From assembly GCF_025526975.1 (NCBI RefSeq), contig NW_026515672.1, positions 186,001 through 250,000 of the forward strand: a stretch of 64,000 nt of DNA, given 5' to 3'. Position 1 is the stretch's first letter. Every line of letters starts with the position of its first letter. A model generated the notes under the pieces. The model was not told where the DNA came from and made no database searches. It saw only the letters and a list, made by a program, of their open reading frames with translations. Shown in pieces: positions 1,646-60,772 of this stretch. The position numbers were made by a program, and so were the translations under genes. The stretch comes from Fimicolochytrium jonesii (lineage: Eukaryota).

Positions 1646-3121
1646 ATGGAGCAGATGCAAAAGCTCCGAATTAGTCTAGTATCGCTGGATTGGCTGAGAC
1701 CGAAGGATCCGCGGATTGCGCTTGGACATGCGTCGATCAAAGCTAAACTGACACAAAGCCAATTCGCCGAGCGCTTGGACGTCAAGGATCACTCCTTCAA
1801 CGTCAATCCAAGCCAATCGCTTCCGGCAGACTTGCTGAGCACGGCTGAAGAAGCAGCTGATGAGATCTTGGCGAGCAAGCCGGATCTTGTGGCATTTGGT
1901 GGATATGTTTGGAACGAATCTTATGTACAAAATATTCACAAGATCTTGGCGACTTCAAACCCGCGAAACACCTTCAACATACTAATGGGTCCGCAGACTT
2001 CCTATGCTCCAAAAGGGACGCTCGAATCATTCTATCCCTTCAGCGACATCTTCATCCGAGGCTATGCAGAAGACGCATTTCGCGACGTTGTCGAAAACAT
2101 GTTGCTACTTCGCAATGAACGGATTCGCGGAGTCCATCATGCGGGAGGGCACGACGATGGTTCTATGGCCAATGTCGATCTCAACGCCGCCCCATCGCCA
2201 TTTACTGAAGTAATCGACTTGAACAAGCACGAATTTATACGCTGGGAGACACAAAGAGGTTGTCCATTCCGTTGCACATTTTGTCAACATCGCGACTCTT
2301 ACCAGAAGCGATCCTTATTCAATTTACCGAAGCGAATTGCTGGAGAGATCCACGAAATCTGCTCAGAGCGAAGCGCTGTGCGCGATATCGCTGTTCTCGA
2401 TCCTACCTTCAACTCGGGACCGCACTACATTTCGGTCATCGAAGAGTTGACCCAACGTGGATACGCAGGGCGCCTTGCACTGCAGTGTCGCTTCGAGATG
2501 ATGCGGCCCGAGTTCGTTGAAGCCGTTCGGAGGCTTATCACGGTCAACAATGCGAAAGTCATACTTGAGTTTGGGATACAGACGATCATAATGGCCGAAA
2601 TGAAGGAGATTCAGCGCATCAACAACCTGGAGAAGGTCAAGTTCTGGGCGGAGCAACTGCATGCCGCGGAGATTCCCTTCGAGATCTCCCTCATCTACGG
2701 TCGCCCACATCAGACCGTCGATACATTCAAGAGGAGCATCGATTTCTGCCACGAACTGAAGCCAACTACCATGTATGCATGGCCCCTGATGCTACTTCGT
2801 GGCACAGAGTTAGAACGAAAGAAAGGGGTTCTCCAGTTGGAGGAAGGCGTGTTAGAGGAGGAAGGGGAGCAAAGATTCGTGGAGAAGCAGCGGATTCTAG
2901 GTGGAATCCCGCATGTTATGAGCTCGCCATCATTCAGCAAGAAGGAATGGTTTGAGATGCGCGATATAGCCGCAAGTCTTAACCTTCATGAGGATTATAT
3001 GTTGTACATAATCTGCTATTCTTTGCATGTTATGAATGTACGCCAATACTTGCCTGTAGTCACCTTACGGTCATACATGCATAATCCCATCGCAATCCGC
3101 GTACGCAAACTCTCAGAATAA
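1646..3121 (+). CDS. B12-binding-domain radical SAM protein (class B-like), intronless, bacterial-type
   Basis: 491-aa ORF. N-terminal cobalamin-binding Rossmann motifs (ALGHASI, KPDLVAFGGYVWN, ILMGPQTSY, DIFIRGYAE), CxxxCxxC in ETQRGCPFRCTFC, then LDPTFN, LEFGIQT, LIYGRPHQT and PLMLLRGTEL. The last ~45 aa look non-conserved. Confidence 0.88.
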   Translation: MEQMQKLRISLVSLDWLRPKDPRIALGHASIKAKLTQSQFAERLDVKDHSFNVNPSQSLPADLLSTAEEAADEILASKPDLVAFGGYVWNESYVQNIHKILATSNPRNTFNILMGPQTSYAPKGTLESFYPFSDIFIRGYAEDAFRDVVENMLLLRNERIRGVHHAGGHDDGSMANVDLNAAPSPFTEVIDLNKHEFIRWETQRGCPFRCTFCQHRDSYQKRSLFNLPKRIAGEIHEICSERSAVRDIAVLDPTFNSGPHYISVIEELTQRGYAGRLALQCRFEMMRPEFVEAVRRLITVNNAKVILEFGIQTIIMAEMKEIQRINNLEKVKFWAEQLHAAEIPFEISLIYGRPHQTVDTFKRSIDFCHELKPTTMYAWPLMLLRGTELERKKGVLQLEEGVLEEEGEQRFVEKQRILGGIPHVMSSPSFSKKEWFEMRDIAASLNLHEDYMLYIICYSLHVMNVRQYLPVVTLRSYMHNPIAIRVRKLSE

Positions 3122-4955: not shown

Positions 4956-7900
4956 CTAACCGCGCTCAGCACTGATGGCGGCACCACTCGCTCGGACGGG
5001 CTTCGCGTCGGCCGCAAGAGCTCCAGTTCCAGCTGCTCCGTTGATCTTGCCGGCGATGCCTACACCCTTCGAATCGGGAGTCTTGTCCGTAACAGCGGGG
5101 TCTTTGGTTGCTTTCTGAGGACTGACCGAGCGCGTATTGTCGCCGCTGTCACCGAAGAGCATCTTCCCATACAGCTTCTTTTCCTCGTCTTTGATTTTCT
5201 GCTGTTCTTTCAGAAGCGCGACTTTCGCGGCTTTGATTGCCGGGTCGTCTCGGTCAAGCTGTGAGAGATCCATTAGTAAGCACGTAGAGTTGTCTCCTGA
5301 GGAGGCCGCTTTGGTCAACATACGTCTTCAGCGGTATCCAACGCGCTCTGAGCCCCTTCCCAGTCCTTGAGCATAGTTTTGGCCCTGCCCAACCTATACC
5401 ACATCTTCGTATTTTGGGGGGCAACAGCCAACCCACCCTCACAAGCTCTTACGGCATCAGAAGCATCCAGAGTACGAATGTAAGCCTCGGCCAGATTAGA
5501 GTAGAGGGCGGTGCGGAGCTTCTGAATCTCCATGTCATCGTGCACGGAGGCGCCCCACGTGGTTCGGAGACGGTCTAGACCGGCCTTGTAGCTTTCTTGG
5601 GATAGATGGTAGGCGCCGGTTTTGAAGTGGGCGTTTCCGCGAGTTTTGTGAGTGGTGGCCTCTTCAATGCGTTGCGGGACAGGGTCTTGAGGCTGATGAG
5701 ATGCAAATTGTCAGCTATTGCTCCATTATAGCCTCCGTAGGCCGTTGAAGCCCTACCAGCTCGGCGTGTACGATTTCCAGATGGAAACACAAAGTGGCGT
5801 TGCCAGGCACCATCGGTTGATAACCTTCCTCGCCATAAGCTGTGAAATCAGGCGAATCCGAAGAAATGGTAAGCATCACTCGTATTCACCGGGACGGGCT
5901 ATGATGCGCCCGTGGAAAGTAACATACCGTATTCAGGTCCACAGATGATCTCGCTCTTCTCATTCACGTGCATAGTAGACACAGCCTTTTCCCACGCTTC
6001 GAGAACTTGGCCTGTGAGATAGGAAAATGTCAGGTTCTGTCCGGCGGGACAGAGCGCATGGTTATTCCGATTAAGTCTCACCGTCTCCATGGACATATTC
6101 AAAGGGACGACGGCCAGCGCTACTGTCAAATTCCTTCGGAGGATCGGTGCCATGCACCCAACCGGTGTAATGAACTACGTCCGATATGTAAGTAATGCCA
6201 CATGTGGAGCGACGTAAATCTCTGAACCCTCACCTTGAAGGTAAGACTGGGGAGTAATCAATGGGCCCGAACCACGTCGAAGGACCTTCTTCTTCAGGTT
6301 TCCATTGGGGTCCAGAAGAGTGTAGCCGTCCGCATCAACGCCGTAGTCGTGCACGACGGGTGCCGCCGGATGCGCTGCTGCAGGGGAAAATAGGGTTTAG
6401 TACCTCATTCGCAGATTCCGCATCTCGAACTCGTGCATACCTGGTGCAGGATCCTCGGCATTATTCCACTTTTCCTGGTCACCTTTCTCGGCCGCTTTGA
6501 CATTGCTCTCCCCTCCCGCTTCATCCCAATCCACCGGAGGAAGATCCTTCAATTCGACGCGCTCGCGTTCATTCTTTTGCTGCTCACGCGAAGGACCGAA
6601 CTGGGGTGGTTCGAGAGGGACATGCGATCCATCCTCAGCGATACGCCAGAACCGGCCATCTTTGCCCATCACAAAGCCGTTGGGAACACGACAGTCACCA
6701 ACGACACGGGAATCAGCCAAGTATTCCGGGATATCTTCCCATGTGTGCTCTCCATTGTAATCTCCCTCCCCTGGCTTTGCTTGAAGGAACGCACAGCCTT
6801 TCAAATCATGCCCTGGATGGCCGCATCTACAACAAACGCCGTCATTGCGACGCTGCCTCCAGAGCCAGTCCGGGATGTTACACTTCTGGCTGAGGCGGAG
6901 CTTTGGCTTCGTCGGGATCTCCATGGTGGAGAACTTGTAAGCGGCGCAGTCATTCCAGTCCTTCTTGCCATCGAGATCATCGTAGAGCGCGCAATCCTGG
7001 AGTCGGTGGCTAGGGTGGCCGCAACGGAGACAAACTTGGCACGCCTTGCGATGCTCCCACAACTCATACGAGATTCCCCAGCGACGACCACCACGGTCGC
7101 GATAGAAACTGTGCTCCTTTTTCTGGGCGGGCGCGGCTTGGTCTGGTATCGGAGTCTCCGTCGGTGCAGTGGGCTGCTTCATGATAGCCTCCCCGGCGGA
7201 CATGTCGTCCTGACCGTCAGCTTGGTCCCCATTCTGGTCGGCATCAGAAGCGTTCCTTTTGTTCTTGTTCTTGTTCTTCTTTTTCTTTTTGCGACCTGAT
7301 GTCTCAGCTAGCTCTTCCTCCGTGGGTGGGATAATCACGACAGGTTCCTGAGATGGGTACGGACGACACGATAGGATGAGATGTATATCCCTCCGACAAA
7401 GCCTACAAGAATTCTGGCAAGCCGATGCGGGTGATGAAGCTAGAGGCTACACGTACCCGCTCTTCGGTGTACTTGAGGCAAGAATGCTGGCCTTTCTCAA
7501 TCTCACAAACCTCCATAGGAAAGTAGGTAGGGCCCTGAAAGTTCAGGCATTATGGGCCGAATTAATCATGTCTCAAAACCAAAAAAAAGAGACGCAGTTC
7601 ACGTACCCCGGATTTCCTGACAACGACGCAAGCCAAGCCTGGATGATCCAATTTCTTTCCCCAGCGACTCTCGAAGTAATCGGCCACGCTTTTGCCGTCC
7701 ATGTCTCCGTCGAGGAAGATCTGATCAGCGCGCCTGGCTGTGAACTGCGAGATTCGGTAGCGACGTCTAAACTCTGGATTATGAGTAGTCAGAAAATTGT
7801 AGTTACGCAGCTCCAGCGTCAGGAAGTTGCAGTCTTCTTCACTGAGAGGCCGAGAGAAGGGATCGGCACGGGTCGGATATTGCTGTTTGAGAAGACGACC

Positions 7901-8461
7901 GACTACTTCGAGCATTGGCCCGCCGTCGAGGAACGAGTCTGTGCGAAGATCCGGATGATGATGAAATCCCTCCTCATCCTGAACCGTTTGGCCGGCTTGC
8001 TCAAGGGCTTCTGGGGTGGGCAGTCCACTTTCTTGGTGGTCCAACGTGGTGCGAGCGAGCCTGGAGAGCGCATCGACAGCCTTCTCAGTCAAACTTCGAA
8101 GATTCAGAATATCCCGTGTTGCGTCAGTTACCTGAGTTCCTCTTGCAAGGTTGAAGCCACAGCTTGCTTTTCGGAAATCTTTTGTCGAAGGTTGGCCATC
8201 CATGCTGAGCTGGAAGCATCCTCGTTTTTGACAGCTCTCTCCACGAGAGGTTCATCGACAACTGGGTGGCTTCCCTCGTCAGCGAACAGTTACCGGTTCA
8301 ATCAAGCAAAGAGCGGTCAATATACCTTCACGAAGGCTGACGGCGTTATCAGGAGTCTCCGTGGTGCTTGGTTTCTCAGCTTGTAGAATCTTGTTGCTAA
8401 CGGCAGCTGAAGAACCGTTGGCGTCGCGCTGGGTTTCTTGGGCAGGAGCCACGTTTCCCAT
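4956..8461 (-). CDS. Fusion protein: Argonaute-type PAZ + 2x CCHC zinc knuckle + FKBP-type PPIase + TPR (Hsp90 clamp), ~937 aa
   Basis: Manual model, all introns GT-AG and in frame: exons 8461-8326, 8261-8132, 8093-7607, 7534-7457, 7347-6441, 6377-6234, 6174-6082, 6011-5928, 5839-5757, 5692-5324, 5258-4956 (2814 nt). PAZ: TTHNPEFRRRYRISQFT...SVADYFESRWGKKLDHPGLACV...PTYFPMEVCEIEKGQ. Knuckles: CLRCGHPSHRLQDC and CCRCGHPGHDLKGC. FKBP: VHYTGW...FDSS...PFEY...GQVLEAWEKAVSTM...EYAYGEEG...VPGNATLCFHLEI. TPR: HKTRGNAHF...YSNLA...NTKMWYRLG...EKKLYGKM. The start codon and the 38-nt second intron are the least certain parts. Confidence 0.82.
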
Positions 8462-9457: not shown

Positions 9458-11273
9458 ATGGCTCAAAGAGACTTCTTCGGGAAAGGGTCGTCCAGCTCCG
9501 GCGGGGGTGAAGGCCTGTTGGGGGACATCATGGGGGCCTTCGACCAACTGCTGGACAGTCAGGACGACGCAAGCACCAGTGGTAAGTGTCTGTCAGGTGC
9601 TCGTAAGCCACCGGACCAGAAAAGCCGCATACGACCTCGTCTTCACTGCCTGCATGGAGCCCATTTCAAAGTCGCTCACACCGGTTCTTCTCGCATGACT
9701 AGGCCCGTCGACCAGAACTTCACACAGTACGGATGGAGAGACGAGACCTTCCTCCGTCTCGCGGCAGACTCCAACGTACGAATCGTCCCGTGCAGCCAAA
9801 CACGCACCCCCTCCGGCTTTCACTGCGAAGGTACATAAAATCGGCGGTGGGAACATATCGCAAACCAAAGATGACAGCAGAATAGGGTCGAGGGATAGGG
9901 ACTCGGTCTCACCTCGGGACGTGCTCAAGTCGCTACGTGGGCATGCCTCATCCATAGATCTGACGGGGAAGGGCAATGAGGGTGGAGCTCGGGACGACTT
10001 TAGGAGCAAAAATCGAAGAGGTCTGGGGAGGACAGACAGCACACCCGCTGTATCTTCCACTTTGGGGTCGGGGCGATCACATGCAAGAGAGGGACCGGTA
10101 CCGGCGCTGGCGTCAATGTCTTCGTTTCTCGACGATGGGAAGCTCCCGAGTTCGCAATGGCGTCCATCGCAAACCACCCGGGACGCCCCACCACTGAATG
10201 GTAAACCTGCAGCATTCAATCGCGCTGCAAGATACGGACGAGCTCCTCGCGCTGCGTCATCGACAGAATCGGAGTCGGAGGCTTCGGAATGGGATGCCAG
10301 CAACTCTGACAGTGATACCCCAGTTAGGCCAGTGATCACTGGTCCCATGTACGGCCGCGCCGCAAGGAGGATAGCTATGCAGCAAAAAGCAACGCTGGAG
10401 CAGAAGCGGCAGGCGAGTTTAGAAGCTGCTGCTGCTGCCGCCGCCGCCGCCGCTGCCATTGCGCCCTCCACCTCCTCGTCTCTGTCTACATCGAAATCTT
10501 TACATAATTTGACACACCGAGGAAATACCAATACGGCGCCGTCCAACAGCAGCGGCAACTCATCCGGAAGCAGCCCATTCGGGAACGCGGCAAAGGCAAC
10601 GATATCACGCTCAAAATCCGCGGCCCATCTGCCATCACACCTGCAACCCATCATCCCCACACCACCACAGTCACCTGTGAAACTGACACCGCACTTCAAA
10701 GTCCAACCTCTCATCACTGGTTTCCGCGAATACGTCCCAAAGCCGTCAATCCATGACGCTGACAATGAGAACAAAGACTCTCCAGCGACCTCGCCCTCCG
10801 CCACCACACCAGCACCTGAAACTCCGACCGAGACAGGCGCAGTGAATTCGCCAACTATACCGCAAGCCCCACAGACACCCCCACTGGAGCCGTACGCCCA
10901 GTTCTATCAGATTCAACAGCAATACGCAGCGTATGCCGCATATATGATGCAGCAACAGCAAGCGTATGCGCAGATGTTCGGAGGACCACCCGCAGCTGCC
11001 GGAGGATATCCTGGGTATCCGCAGCCGATGGTCTCTGCGGATGGCAAGCAATCGAAGAAGAAATCTTCGAAGAAGGGGGCCAAAAAGTCGAAGAAGAAGA
11101 GGTCCCAGGTTGAGGGCGAACCTGGAGCGGGTGTGGATGCTTCGACGCCCGAAGGGACGCCGGAAGGGACGCCGGAAGGAACGTCTATGGTGGAAGCGGA
11201 ACAGCCGGTCAAGGCCGCAACAGCGAATGATGTGCCACAGACAGACGCAGACATCCCGATCGCCGCCGAGTGA
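9458..11273 (+). CDS. Hypothetical low-complexity/disordered protein (S/P-rich, poly-Ala, Q/Y-rich and K-rich segments)
   Basis: Exon 1 9458..9581 (MAQRDFFGKG...), GTAAGT...ACTAG intron, exon 2 9703..11273 in frame with the 450-aa ORF. No recognisable domain. Confidence 0.65.
10425..10457 (+). repeat. Coding (GCT/GCC)11 trinucleotide repeat encoding poly-Ala
   Basis: (GCT)4(GCC)5GCTGCC read directly. Confidence 0.9.
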
Positions 11274-23164: not shown

Positions 23165-24267
23165 ATGTCCCGCCGCAACCCCACCCTCGGTCTTCTCATC
23201 CCCGCCTACATCTACCCTCGCGCCCACGAATCTGATCCGTATCCATCGCTCCGCAAGTACGTTCTCTTGCCCTCCCTCGCTCCCAATCCACCCCACATCT
23301 TGCATCATCGCTAACCCACTCACCTTCCAGCTGGACCCCCCTCCTAACCCTCCTCCAAACACACCCCACCATCCCCACAACCCTCATCCTCAACCCCGCC
23401 TCCGGCCCCGGCCCCTCCCCACTCCCCGACGAAGTCTACGCCCACGCCATCGCCACCCTCCGCACGACCTGCCCGCACGTCACTTTGGTCGGTTACGTCG
23501 CCACCGGGTACACGCGCGTGTCGCTTGCGAAGGCGGTGGAGGAGGTTGGGCGCTATGCGGGGTGGCGGGTGGGGCAGGGCGTCGCGGAGGTTGGTGGTGG
23601 CGGTGATGCTGGGCCCGGCGTGACGCAGACGCTGGCGCTGGATGGCATATTCTTTGATGAAGTGGGCAGCGATGAGGCTGGAAAGGGGTATTACCATACA
23701 CTTGCGGAGGAGGTTGTGAGGCATTTCGCGGGACGGACGGTAGCGTGTACGACCCCAGTCGTGATACATAACCCTGGGGTGGTGCCGAGTGGGCCGTGGC
23801 CGTTCCGTCCCGCCGCTGTTACCGGAGATGCACCCGGGTGGAATGGGATCGCCGAGCCGATCGTGGTAGTGAGTGAGAGAAAAGCGGTGGATTATTCCCC
23901 CGTATCACCACGAATTGCGGCGCTCGATGCAAAGGAAGCTGAGGGATACCGGGTCATGCCTGAACGATGCGCGGTGATCTTGAACCGGGTAGAGACGCGG
24001 AAGATGGCGGAGGATGTGTTGACGAGGATCCTAATGGACGATCGGGTTGGGTGGGTATGGTTTACGGAGGATGACCAGTAAGTTTCATCGGGGATATGAG
24101 AGCGCCGTATTGCGGGAGAGGCCTTTTCATGCTGAAGCTGAACGGTTTGCAGTTATCACGCGTTTCCGGCCTATCTTCCTTATGTATTCAACACGCTAGC
24201 GCACGGCCCAGGATCAGTCGAGTCGACAAGCAATGAGGGCCGAACTCCAGCTCATAATACCAAGTAG
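23165..24267 (+). CDS. Spherulation-specific family 4 / Sph3-like (GH135) glycoside hydrolase
   Basis: Three exons. LLIPAYIYP, WTPL, LILNPASGPG, LVGYVATGY, LDGIFFDE, VIHNPG, IVVVSE, GWVWFTED, YHAFP. Confidence 0.85.
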
Positions 24268-37282: not shown

Positions 37283-37643
37283 GCTGGGGTAAAAAAAAGC
37301 GGTGGTTTTCTGAGAAAAAATGCCCACAGCGGAAATCCCCGTTTGCCCACAGCGGAAAGTGGGCTGTTTCAGCGGGGTTCCCGTTATGTGGTGAGCGCTG
37401 CTTGCAGGTGCGATGGACACGTTTATGAGGGCGATAGGGAATCGAACGAGGCTTCGAGCATTCTCAAGCAGTAAGGTGGTGCGCGCTTACGCAACGGACG
37501 CTTGTGATTGGCTGGATTCTGGCAGACTATTATTCCCCAGCGAAACTCGGCTCAACACAGCAGCTGCGTCGTCGAGTCCAATTCACAGAACGAATCGTCG
37601 CTGGCCGCCTGTCGTCGCTAAACAACAGGATCGTCTTCCGAAC

Positions 37644-38871
37644 ATGCGCCCAATCATACCTTGCACAGCCCCCCGGGCAAGTAAGGTCCTCTTCCCCCAC
37701 CTCCGTCAACCACAACGGCCAGCATCCACCGTCAGTGCCCGCGTGCAGCAAATGACCACCACAGCATCCCGGCACCCACCGTCGGACAGCCAACGGTCAG
37801 CGATTCAAAAGTTCGCAGAGAGCAATGAACTTCGCTTTCGGAACGAGGCGCTGCTGGTGGACGCGCTGACGCACTCTTCGTATGCGTCACCTCACACTCC
37901 CTTGGATATTGAAAACAAGCGGTTAGCGTTCTTGGGTAAGGGCTTTTTGTGCGTTGTGAGATCACGGGCGGTGGGCAGGCGGCTTCCCCGCTGCCCTCTG
38001 TCCGTTGTATGGGCATATGCTCTGACACGCATCATCCTGCTCGTGTTTTGGTGTTTTCAGGGCTTAAGGTCCTACCGCTGTACGTTACGGAACATATCCG
38101 CACGCAGTTTCCAGACCTGCCAGCGGACGCCATGGAATCGGTCATGAAGGCGTTCACAGGGCCAGATGTTTTGAAGCAGATTGGGACGAAAGTGGGGATA
38201 CCGAGCGCCGTGAGAGTCAAGGTGGGGGAGGAAACGCTGTTGCCTGACATGCCATGGATATGGGGACTGACCAGGTTGGGGTTCGCAGGAACAGGCTCTG
38301 GGCAGTAGCACTCCCGCGTCCATTTCGGGCCGCATGTTGATATCACTGATTGGGGCAATATATCAGGACCAGGGGCCGCAAGCGGCACGGCAGTTTGTGG
38401 AGAAGCATGTTCTCTCGAGATCGGTCGATGTGAGCATACATAGGAAGATGCTGTACCCACGGACTTTGCTCGACACTATCGTTAAGGAATCTGGAGGCGC
38501 GAGGCCAGTAGCTGAGTACGTTCTTCCGTGGGTACGCTTTGATCTTGTTCGCAGCTGTACTTACACTGCTATTATTGTAGAACGACCAAGGAGGCGGGAA
38601 TAGCATCGGCCACACCGGTGTATGGAGTCACACTAAAACTGGGCGAGAAGAAGATTGGGGAGGGGTTCGGCAACACCGCCAAGATGGCAGAAACACGGGT
38701 ATGGCGGACCATTTACTTCATCAAAGCAATAGCGTTCAACTTGGGTGCTGACTCCTGTATCACAACCAGGCCATCAAGCTTGCTTTACGCACACATTACC
38801 ACGCACAACTGCACAAGACCACGCTGCCATCACAAATAGATGAGGAAGGAATAACATTTTTCCCCGCATAA
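37644..38871 (+). CDS. MRPL3: Mitochondrial ribosomal protein mL44 (RNase III-like + dsRBD)
   Basis: Arg-rich presequence, LVDALTHSSY, NKRLAFLG, TEHIRTQFPDLP, SLIGAIYQDQGPQAARQFVEKHVLSR, and dsRBD-like VYGVTL...IGEGFGNTAKMAETRA. Confidence 0.8.
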
Positions 38872-58846: not shown

Positions 58847-60772
58847 ATGAGTAGCGCTGGCACTTCGAAAGCCGTCGGAATCGATCTCGGCACAACCTAC
58901 AGCTGTGTCGGAGTCTTCCAAAACGACCGGGTAGAAATTATCCCAAACGACCAAGGCAACCGTACAACGCCCAGCTATGTGGCTTTCACCGATACTGAGC
59001 GTCTCATTGGAGACGCAGCGAAAAACCAAGTCGCCCTGAACCCACAAAACACTGTCTTTGACGCCAAGCGACTCATCGGCCGCCGGTTCACTGACAAGGA
59101 AGTTCAAAGCGATATGCAGCACTGGCCCTTCAAGGTCTGCTGCGAGGGCGACGGAAAGCCAGTCATCGAAGTCGAATTCAAGGGCGAGAAGAAGAGGTTC
59201 ACACCCGAACAAATCTCTTCGATGGTGCTCACCAAGATGCGCGAAATCTCCGAAGCCTACCTCGGCCACCCTGTCAAAGACGCAGTCATCACGGTCCCAG
59301 CCTATTTCAACGATTCTCAACGACAAGCAACGAAAGACGCTGGAACCATCGCCAACCTCAACGTTCTGCGCATTATCAACGAACCTACTGCCGCGGCGAT
59401 TGCGTACGGGCTTGACAAGCGCAAGGGCCATGAGCAAAACGTCCTCATTTTCGATCTTGGAGGCGGCACGTTTGACGTGTCGCTTCTTTCCATCGAAGAC
59501 GGCGTTTTCGAAGTCAAAGCTACCGCCGGCGATACCCACCTAGGCGGTGAAGACTTTGACAACCGCTTGGTCTCACACTTCGTCGACGAATTCAAGCGCA
59601 AATACAAGAAGGACATCCGAAGCAACCAGCGAGCACTTCGCCGCTTGCGTACGGCTGCCGAGCGCGCTAAGCGAACACTCTCGTCATCAGCCCAAGCGAG
59701 TCTCGAAATCGATTCTCTCTACGAAGGCATCGACTTCTATACGACAATAACCAGGGCGCGGTTTGAAGAACTCTGCGGCGATTTGTTCCGCGCCACGCTC
59801 GAACCGGTTGAGAAGGTTCTGCGAGACGCCAAAATCGCAAAGAATGAAGTCCACGAAGTCGTATTGGTCGGCGGCTCCACTCGCATCCCCAAAGTTCAGA
59901 AGCTCGTCTCCGACTTTTTCAACGGCAAGGAACTAAACCGGTCGATCAACCCGGACGAAGCAGTGGCCTACGGTGCTGCTGTCCAAGCAGCGATCCTCAC
60001 CGGTGTTCAATCCGAAAAGACGCAAGATGTGCTGTTGATGGATGTGGCGCCTCTCTCGCTCGGTCTCGAGACCGCCGGCGGAGTCATGACGCCGCTCATT
60101 CCTCGCAACACCGTTATACCCACCAAGAAGAGTCAAGTCTTTTCGACCTATTCGGACAACCAACCCGGCGTCCTGATTCAAGTCTACGAAGGCGAACGCA
60201 AGCTTACCAAAGACAACAATCTTCTCGGCAAATTCGAGCTCAGCGGTATCCCTCCTGCGCCTCGGGGCGTCCCGCAGATCGAAGTCGTCTTCGACATGGA
60301 TGCTAACGGCATCTTGAACGTATCTGCGCAAGACAAGACAACGGGGAGATCTGGCAAAATCACCATCACGAACGATAAGGGCCGTCTCAGCAAAGAGGAC
60401 ATTGAGCGCATGGTCAGCGAGGCTGAGAAGTTCAAGCAGGAAGATGCCGCGGTCGCTGAACGAGTCTCTGCTCGCAACGAGTTCGAATCGTACACATACA
60501 ACCTTCGTAACACCATGGATGACCCCAAACTGAGTGGCAACCTTTCCGATGAGGACAAGGCCAGCTTGAAGAAGCTCGTCGATGAAGCTATTCAATGGCT
60601 CGATCACAATCACGAAGCCTCAACCGAAGAGTATAAGGAACGTCAGAACGAATTGTCCAAGGCGACCGAAGGCATCTTGAAGAAGATGTATCAAGGCGGA
60701 GGAGGTAACACGGGAGGAGCTACCACAGACGGCAGTGCTCCCTCTGGTCCTACCGTGGAGGAAGTCGATTGA
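58847..60772 (+). CDS. HSP70: Cytosolic Hsp70 (Ssa-type), intronless
   Basis: [35 protein letters not shown]-terminal GPTVEEVD. Confidence 0.98.

Follow-up and report, generated by a model that had tools for sequence, protein, structure and literature searches.

A chytrid gene that joins an Argonaute-type PAZ domain and twin CCHC knuckles to an FKBP-TPR co-chaperone half

Proteins built of FKBP and TPR domains are reported to assist the loading of Argonaute-family proteins in mouse, fly and Tetrahymena (PMC3851725; PMC3463805; PMC4331008). FKBP4 and FKBP5 (FKBP52 and FKBP51) are described as associating with mouse Ago2 and supporting its loading, and mammalian FKBP6 as inactive as a peptidyl-prolyl isomerase (PPIase) (PMC3851725). 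For Drosophila Shutdown, a lysine of the TPR clamp is reported to be required for function, and the protein colocalises with unloaded PIWI proteins (PMC3463805). The FKBP-TPR protein Coi12p of Tetrahymena is said to promote small-RNA loading both with and without Hsp90 (PMC4331008), and plant CYP40 is cited as a PPIase-TPR co-chaperone for AGO1 loading (in PMC3463805 and PMC3851725). On the client side, Hsp90 is described as keeping AGO2 and PIWI in an open state that RNA can enter, with the RNA-binding module set aside; PAZ binds RNA 3' ends; and in the apo-PIWI-HSP90 complex the RNA-binding module was not resolved, for which missing RNA or a missing FKBP co-chaperone was suggested as the reason (bioRxiv 10.64898/2026.07.04.736496). 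The Hsp90 co-chaperones that aid Argonaute loading in these accounts have no described RNA-binding domain, and the route by which RNA reaches the opened Argonaute is left open there. Here we describe a gene of the chytrid Fimicolochytrium jonesii (contig NW_026515672.1, positions 186,001 to 250,000; this stretch of 64,000 nucleotides is referred to as the window), located at 4956-8461 on the minus strand, in which one protein combines an Argonaute PAZ domain with a duplicated knuckle module, followed by an FKBP-TPR half that looks intact. The fusion, carried by Spizellomycetales chytrids, is real, conserved and lineage-restricted. An earlier interpretation of the same DNA made without database searches (the sequence-only reading) had proposed this architecture and knew of no described protein with it; in agreement, we found no published description of a PAZ-knuckle-FKBP-TPR protein in a literature search from which subscription journals are largely excluded.

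Conceptual joining of eleven exons gives a single open frame of 926 amino acids. All ten introns are of the GT-AG type and 59-109 nt long, and an in-frame stop lies inside every one of them, so that each must be spliced out; the splicing of the 11-exon gene is predicted, on the basis of homology. The sequence-only reading had eleven exons joined in frame through canonical introns, as borne out here, and its two key junctions, 7457/7347 (phase 0) and 6441/6377 (phase 1), are also as it gave them. Its length of 937 amino acids, however, is revised. Among 20 single alternatives that add 33 nt, 937 amino acids were obtained only with an intron 2 of 38 nt, which would make it the shortest of the ten introns; a 71-nt intron 2 is preferred because its size matches that of the others. 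The discrepancy is confined to the unconserved N-terminus, where exon 1 has a coding score of +10.0 in frame against 0.1 and -31.2 in the other frames. From 5' to 3', the parts of the gene are:

8326..8461, minus strand: exon 1 (amino acids 1-45), with the ATG at 8461; low-complexity, unconserved, without a Pfam match
8132..8261, minus strand: exon 2 (amino acids 46-88), unconserved N-terminal region backed by coding score, without a Pfam match
7607..8060, minus strand: exon 3 (amino acids 89-240), end of the Argonaute linker L1 and most of PAZ, with Pfam and PDB matches
7457..7534, minus strand: exon 4 (amino acids 241-266), C-terminal PAZ strand (PAZ profile 92-112) and first L2 residues
7348..7456, minus strand: intron 4 (109 nt, phase 0, GT-AG), joining PAZ to the knuckle exon
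6441..7347, minus strand: exon 5 (amino acids 267-568), lysine-rich linker, twin-knuckle module and acidic linker
6991..7032, minus strand: CCHC knuckle 1 (amino acids 372-385), a pattern present in all five family members
6793..6834, minus strand: CCHC knuckle 2 (amino acids 438-451), in the second copy of a tandem repeat of 66-68 residues
6234..6377, minus strand: exon 6 (amino acids 569-616), start of the FKBP domain, aligned with the FKBP starts of the orthologues
6082..6174, minus strand: exon 7 (amino acids 617-647), FKBP, with pocket positions Y619, F632, D633 and F641
5928..6011, minus strand: exon 8 (amino acids 648-675), FKBP, with V650, L651 and W654 (FKBP_C, E=3.8e-4)
5757..5839, minus strand: exon 9 (amino acids 676-703), FKBP, with Y677 and F694 (FKBP_C, E=0.012)
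5324..5692, minus strand: exon 10 (amino acids 704-826), TPR, with clamp positions K719, N723, N769, K799 and R803 (TPR_2, E=3.2e-8)
4956..5258, minus strand: exon 11 (amino acids 827-926), post-TPR helix to about 5157, unconserved tail and stop

Of 15 candidate acceptors for intron 4, no other has so long an AG-free run (41 nt) or so many pyrimidines (14 of 20) as the one at 7348. Use of an alternative acceptor at 7414 (43-nt intron) would keep the frame and add 22 residues, and use of another at 7403 (54-nt intron) would bring a stop 32 residues past PAZ; as far as the sequence goes, these acceptors could give rise to a longer linker or to a PAZ-only isoform. Exon 5 has its first in-frame ATG at 7203, and the 48 codons that precede it are coding-like (+20.9 against -17.3 and -10.3). 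Exon 5 therefore needs an upstream exon, and a separate knuckle gene starting from its own ATG was rejected.

Relatives were sought with HMMER, using the knuckle exon as the query against 1.84 billion representative proteins. Three were found, with E-values from 1e-40 to 1e-50: Thoreauomyces humboldtii KAJ3024370.1 (P0001), Geranomyces variabilis KAJ3175604.1 (P0002) and a 319-residue fragment from a short contig (P0003). A profile search contributed Geranomyces michiganensis KAJ3151648.1 (P0005), together with two matches (E=3e-5 and 3e-4) that proved to be unrelated FKBP proteins. Both Geranomyces proteins are labelled "cytochrome P450 monooxygenase 9" in the public record, a name that we rejected because neither has a P450 family match. 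By taxonomy look-up, two of the relatives belong to the Powellomycetaceae (Spizellomycetales), in support of the early-diverging fungal setting assumed in the sequence-only reading. When single exons served as queries in word-seeded searches for longer proteins, none was found among 1802 and none among 214 candidates, an uninformative outcome given that relatives exist nonetheless, and two metagenome scans (319 and 278 pattern matches) yielded no relative. The F. jonesii protein itself was not found in the collection searched, although the Hsp70 encoded in the same window was present there; the fusion gene may thus be unannotated in its own genome.

The order PAZ, knuckles, FKBP_C and TPR is identical in all three full-length relatives, so that the fusion, far from being absent from related species, recurs in Thoreauomyces and in two species of Geranomyces. 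With blastp, the window model aligned to two of the relatives with 43% identity over 732 columns and 38% over 772 columns. Seven of the eight junctions displayed against three relatives are gap-free, including the PAZ-linker join across intron 4, where identity is about 40%; the eighth, 6441/6377, sits in an unconserved linker and is not covered by homology. Because the order is the same and the PAZ-linker alignment is gap-free in three species, a chimera is unlikely. Moreover, the alignment with P0003 begins at the start of exon 5 and ends at the end of exon 6, which suggests that P0003 shares these two intron positions. Invariant columns among the four full proteins number 40 of 148 in PAZ, 57 of 162 in the knuckles, 40 of 119 in FKBP and 37 of 160 in TPR, and 5 of 77 and 3 of 77 in the two linkers. 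We conclude that the fusion is, with near certainty, a single gene.

Two of the relatives carry N-terminal extensions. Residues 10-335 of the Thoreauomyces protein resemble an Asteroid/XPG-type nuclease (Atlas 0.94), and the model has a weak treble-clef match as well (E=0.016); residues 1-1190 of the G. michiganensis protein form a TmcB-like protein ahead of the fusion (TPR_TmcB, 1.3e-14). Since neither has a counterpart in the 64-kb window, both are probably merged neighbouring genes. Unlike the extensions, the shared core is the same across the four species.

When the 11 exon pieces were scanned with Pfam, exon 3 matched PAZ above the cut-off (E=2.1e-8, profile positions 20-92), and the profile resumed in exon 4 (positions 92-112, E=0.15). 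All 12 PDB matches of exon 3 at E<=0.01 were Argonautes, the best being AGO10 (1.5e-7) in an alignment that starts in what we take to be the end of linker L1, and all four matches of exon 4 at E<=1 were Argonaute PAZ chains. The full-length model of the G. variabilis protein (mean predicted local distance difference test, pLDDT, 58.9; predicted TM-score, pTM, 0.29) shows ordered domains and disordered linkers; in Foldseek searches its PAZ domain matched human AGO1 (7.7e-8) and also AGO2, and its C-terminal part FKBP52, FKBP51 and FKBP38. The PAZ domain is thus of the Argonaute type (AGO clade), with which it shares the end of L1 and the start of L2. The N, MID and PIWI domains of Argonaute are missing from the fusion, which therefore cannot be a guide-directed effector. 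By Pfam, no ArgoN, MID or Piwi domain was found in the exons, in the relatives or in 72 open reading frames (ORFs) of the gene and its flanks (part of the 90 listed for this region, most of the others being scanned with Pfam separately), so that a broken Argonaute was rejected. Nor did Pfam detect, in the fusion protein or its relatives, the tandem RNase III domains that are the hallmark of Dicer. Between the two Geranomyces species, PAZ is 82% identical, the knuckles 75%, TPR 69% and FKBP 64%. As PAZ has the highest identity of the four domains, it is under constraint, and a PAZ relic was rejected. Its residues T181, Y190, Y217, T243, Y244, P246 and E248 are invariant in the four proteins, and position 187 is R or K.

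In the C-terminal half, consecutive parts of the FKBP_C profile lie in exon 8 (positions 43-69) and exon 9 (positions 71-93), and exon 10 matched FKBP5 (2.7e-8) and FKBP4 (8.2e-8) besides TPR_2. FKBP_C is directly followed by TPR in the window exons and in all three full-length relatives (E 2e-17 to 7e-21), with one FKBP_C stretch per protein, not two. The five residues that presumably form the two-carboxylate clamp, K719, N723, N769, K799 and R803, align with those of FKBP4; all five are present in the window model and in both Geranomyces proteins, and four in Thoreauomyces. The post-TPR helix of the orthologues aligns to the C-terminal helix of FKBP4. If the FKBP pocket is assumed to consist of Tyr, Phe, Asp, Phe, Val, Ile, Trp, Tyr and Phe, then Y619, F632, W654, Y677 and F694 are invariant in all four proteins, D633 and F641 are E and V in G. 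michiganensis, and the Ile position is Leu in all four; an Arg position of the pocket is not conserved. From its residues, the PPIase pocket looks largely intact. By these sequence tests, the C-terminal half qualifies as an FKBP-TPR (large immunophilin) Hsp90 co-chaperone.

FKBP4 and FKBP5 are the top matches of this half (phmmer 1.9e-35, Foldseek 2.7e-17) and share with it the TPR clamp and the post-TPR helix, but each contains two FKBP domains and lacks an RNA-binding domain, whereas the fusion has one FKBP domain beside TPR, together with PAZ and two knuckles. CYP40 carries a cyclophilin rather than an FKBP domain; it gave a weak TPR match only (E=0.0028), and it has no PAZ. Shutdown and FKBP6 resemble the fusion in having one PPIase-type domain with TPR, but they serve animal PIWI proteins, and the account as cited mentions neither PAZ nor knuckles in them (PMC3463805). 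Coi12p is reported to have two FKBP domains, no detected PPIase activity and no RNA-binding domain in the architecture given (PMC4331008). Shutdown, FKBP6, Coi12p and CYP40 are the analogues named in the sequence-only reading; the pocket of the fusion, apparently intact, looks nearer to that of FKBP4 and FKBP5 than to those of Coi12p and FKBP6, which are described as PPIase-inactive. The fusion is therefore neither an FKBP4/5, having one FKBP domain, nor like Shutdown, FKBP6 or Coi12p in its pocket, and it is neither an Argonaute nor a Dicer.

Between these halves, the window model has two exact CX2CX4HX4C patterns 66 residues apart, a spacing of 66-68 residues in all five proteins. Within each pattern, the residues are spaced as in retroelement Gag-type zinc knuckles (zf-CCHC). 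A profile of the first repeat recovers the second at 46-65 bits, against 10.0 for the best of 1000 shuffles. Masking the knuckle still leaves 12-20 bits (best shuffle 4.4); the whole unit has thus been duplicated. AlphaFold2, run on five knuckle-module sequences, gave block pLDDT values of 73-90 over residues 11-170 of the modelled piece and pTM 0.55. Fold searches with this model were negative in PDB and in BFVD with Foldseek (E<=0.001) and among 48,161 chains with VIA-align (Z>=2), which is no proof that the fold is new. The best Atlas neighbour reaches 0.85, with a weak lean to zf-CCHC and Gag-type clusters (0.79-0.84) that serves as a lead only, and Pfam E-values of 0.35 and 0.63, on P0003 only, are below significance. 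From the CCHC pattern, we infer that the knuckles may bind RNA.

We propose, with a probability of about one half, that the protein is an FKBP-TPR co-chaperone that docks on Hsp90, holds the 3' end of a small RNA and hands the RNA to an Hsp90-opened Argonaute; the docking on Hsp90, the binding of RNA and the choice of client are what we infer. The TPR clamp would bind the C-terminal EEVD of Hsp90, PAZ would grip the free 3' end of the RNA, and the knuckles would hold its single-stranded body. The two flexible 77-residue linkers could then allow the RNA-binding half to swing across to the opened Argonaute, with the client steadied by the FKBP domain. Bringing RNA to an opened client would be the simplest use of a PAZ domain tethered to a co-chaperone. 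Where a carrier has no Dicer, single-stranded guides would make up the cargo.

Several observations weigh against this proposal. The PAZ pocket, to which we presumably can assign F204, F218 and position 242, has partly drifted: F204 is M, R and R in the relatives, F218 is F, L and L, and position 242 varies as P, W, M and M. The knuckles have no significant family match, and no Pfam family in the window model. All of the relatives are gene predictions, two of the three with the unrelated extensions described above, and the pipeline that produced them probably can merge neighbouring genes. An Argonaute in the carrier species is assumed, and no literature on Argonaute or RNA interference (RNAi) in Geranomyces was found. 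Finally, a survey of fungal Dicers covers 19 chytrid proteomes, ten of them at least 90% complete; nine of these ten have Dicer, and G. variabilis GCA_025399175.1 (96.5% complete, "No Dcr detected") is the sole exception as reported (PMC12663654). That entry is a proteome- and annotation-based call on one assembly, which may or may not be the source of KAJ3175604.1. Dicer is reported in Powellomyces hirtus and two species of Spizellomyces (PMC12663654), the former of the family to which two of the relatives belong (Powellomycetaceae); the fusion searches gave no named match in Spizellomyces or Powellomyces, a weak negative given clustering and word filters. If G. variabilis truly lacks Dicer, then either Dicer duplexes are not what the protein carries or Argonaute is not its client; guides may be Dicer-independent, or PAZ may serve another ribonucleoprotein (RNP).

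The reported absence of Dicer raises the standing of the alternative that survives best, which we nevertheless hold to be unlikely: PAZ outlived the decay of RNAi and now directs Hsp90 to some other RNA-protein client, without an Argonaute; there it would recognise RNA 3' ends in RNPs of retroelement, viral or cellular origin and chaperone or block their assembly. That one carrier species is reported without Dicer and yet has PAZ as its best-conserved domain is consistent with such exaptation, as are the lack of named matches from the chytrids reported to have Dicer, the lean of the knuckles to Gag-type clusters and the lack of any ArgoN, MID or Piwi remnant in the 72 flanking and overlapping ORFs. 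However, the Dicer call is a single one on an assembly that is perhaps not the source of the G. variabilis protein, the Gag resemblance is below significance, and an Argonaute domain joined to a known class of Argonaute co-chaperones would be a coincidence. Rather unlikely, too, is a specific form of the loading proposal in which a Dicer-less chytrid lineage has Dicer-independent silencing, with the fusion as a dedicated loader that feeds 3'-captured single-stranded guides to Hsp90-opened Argonaute; the knuckle fold would then be an undescribed one and the system a fungal parallel to PIWI-interacting RNA loading.

The same anatomy would also fit a role on the exit side, in which the protein takes a passenger strand or sliced product by its 3' end from Hsp90-bound Argonaute and passes it to decay. 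FKBP6 has a clearing role with Hsp90, and the nuclease-like domain of the Thoreauomyces model, if truly joined, would be suited to decay and would place a nuclease next to PAZ. The extension, however, is found in one of the four full-length models and is absent from the window, and the FKBP-TPR literature, as cited, describes loading (PMC4331008; PMC3463805; PMC3851725); we consider this role improbable. Still more doubtful is a PAZ domain that does not bind RNA and acts as a protein-contact or decoy module on an otherwise ordinary immunophilin. The substitutions F204R and F218L in Geranomyces would agree with it, but the seven invariant PAZ residues and the R or K at position 187 argue against it, as does the second module of nucleic-acid type next to PAZ. 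That gene prediction merely joined two adjacent genes, one PAZ-only and one knuckle-FKBP-TPR, is highly improbable: the stop reached through acceptor 7403 or on intron retention and the probable N-terminal merges in two relatives lean towards it, but the exons lie only 109 nt apart, the junction is gap-free in three species, and the knuckle exon has coding-like codons ahead of its first ATG.

Among the window ORFs scanned, no Argonaute, Dicer or RdRP (RNA-dependent RNA polymerase) family was found. At 37395-38147 (plus strand), the one ORF scanned matches the first part of an RNase III-like domain (Ribonucleas_3_3, 2.4e-5, below cut-off) and is likely not a Dicer. The Hsp70 gene (58847-60772, plus strand), 50 kb from the fusion gene, is one long ORF ending in EEVD, and its product is a possible ligand of the TPR domain; TPR and the Hsp70 C-terminus form a textbook pair. 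Upstream of the fusion gene and on the opposite strand lies a low-complexity ORF of 524 codons without a Pfam match (9699-11273, plus strand). On its other side, at 1649-3121 (plus strand), an apparently intronless ORF encodes a B12-binding radical SAM protein (Radical_SAM 2.3e-10; B12-binding 7.9e-6, below cut-off), for which transfer from bacteria is possible. A Spherulin-4 family gene (7e-37) is found at 23236-24081, plus strand. The remaining neighbours, between 11453 and 58154, are ordinary eukaryotic genes: a Nudix hydrolase, a kinesin, NMD3, an inositol-phosphatase-type enzyme, a RING ligase, UGGT, a neutral trehalase, Csl4, an AAA ATPase, a DEAD helicase and a Myb protein.

The natural fusion of PAZ with FKBP-TPR means that both functions can operate together in one place; it also provides, in a single chain, a tool with which to trap the RNA-delivery step at an Hsp90-opened Argonaute. 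The twin-knuckle module has no relative of solved structure and is a candidate fold for binding RNA. If the carriers are truly Dicer-less, the gene signals one of two things: a fungal small-RNA pathway that is independent of Dicer, or a novel role for PAZ beyond RNA silencing.

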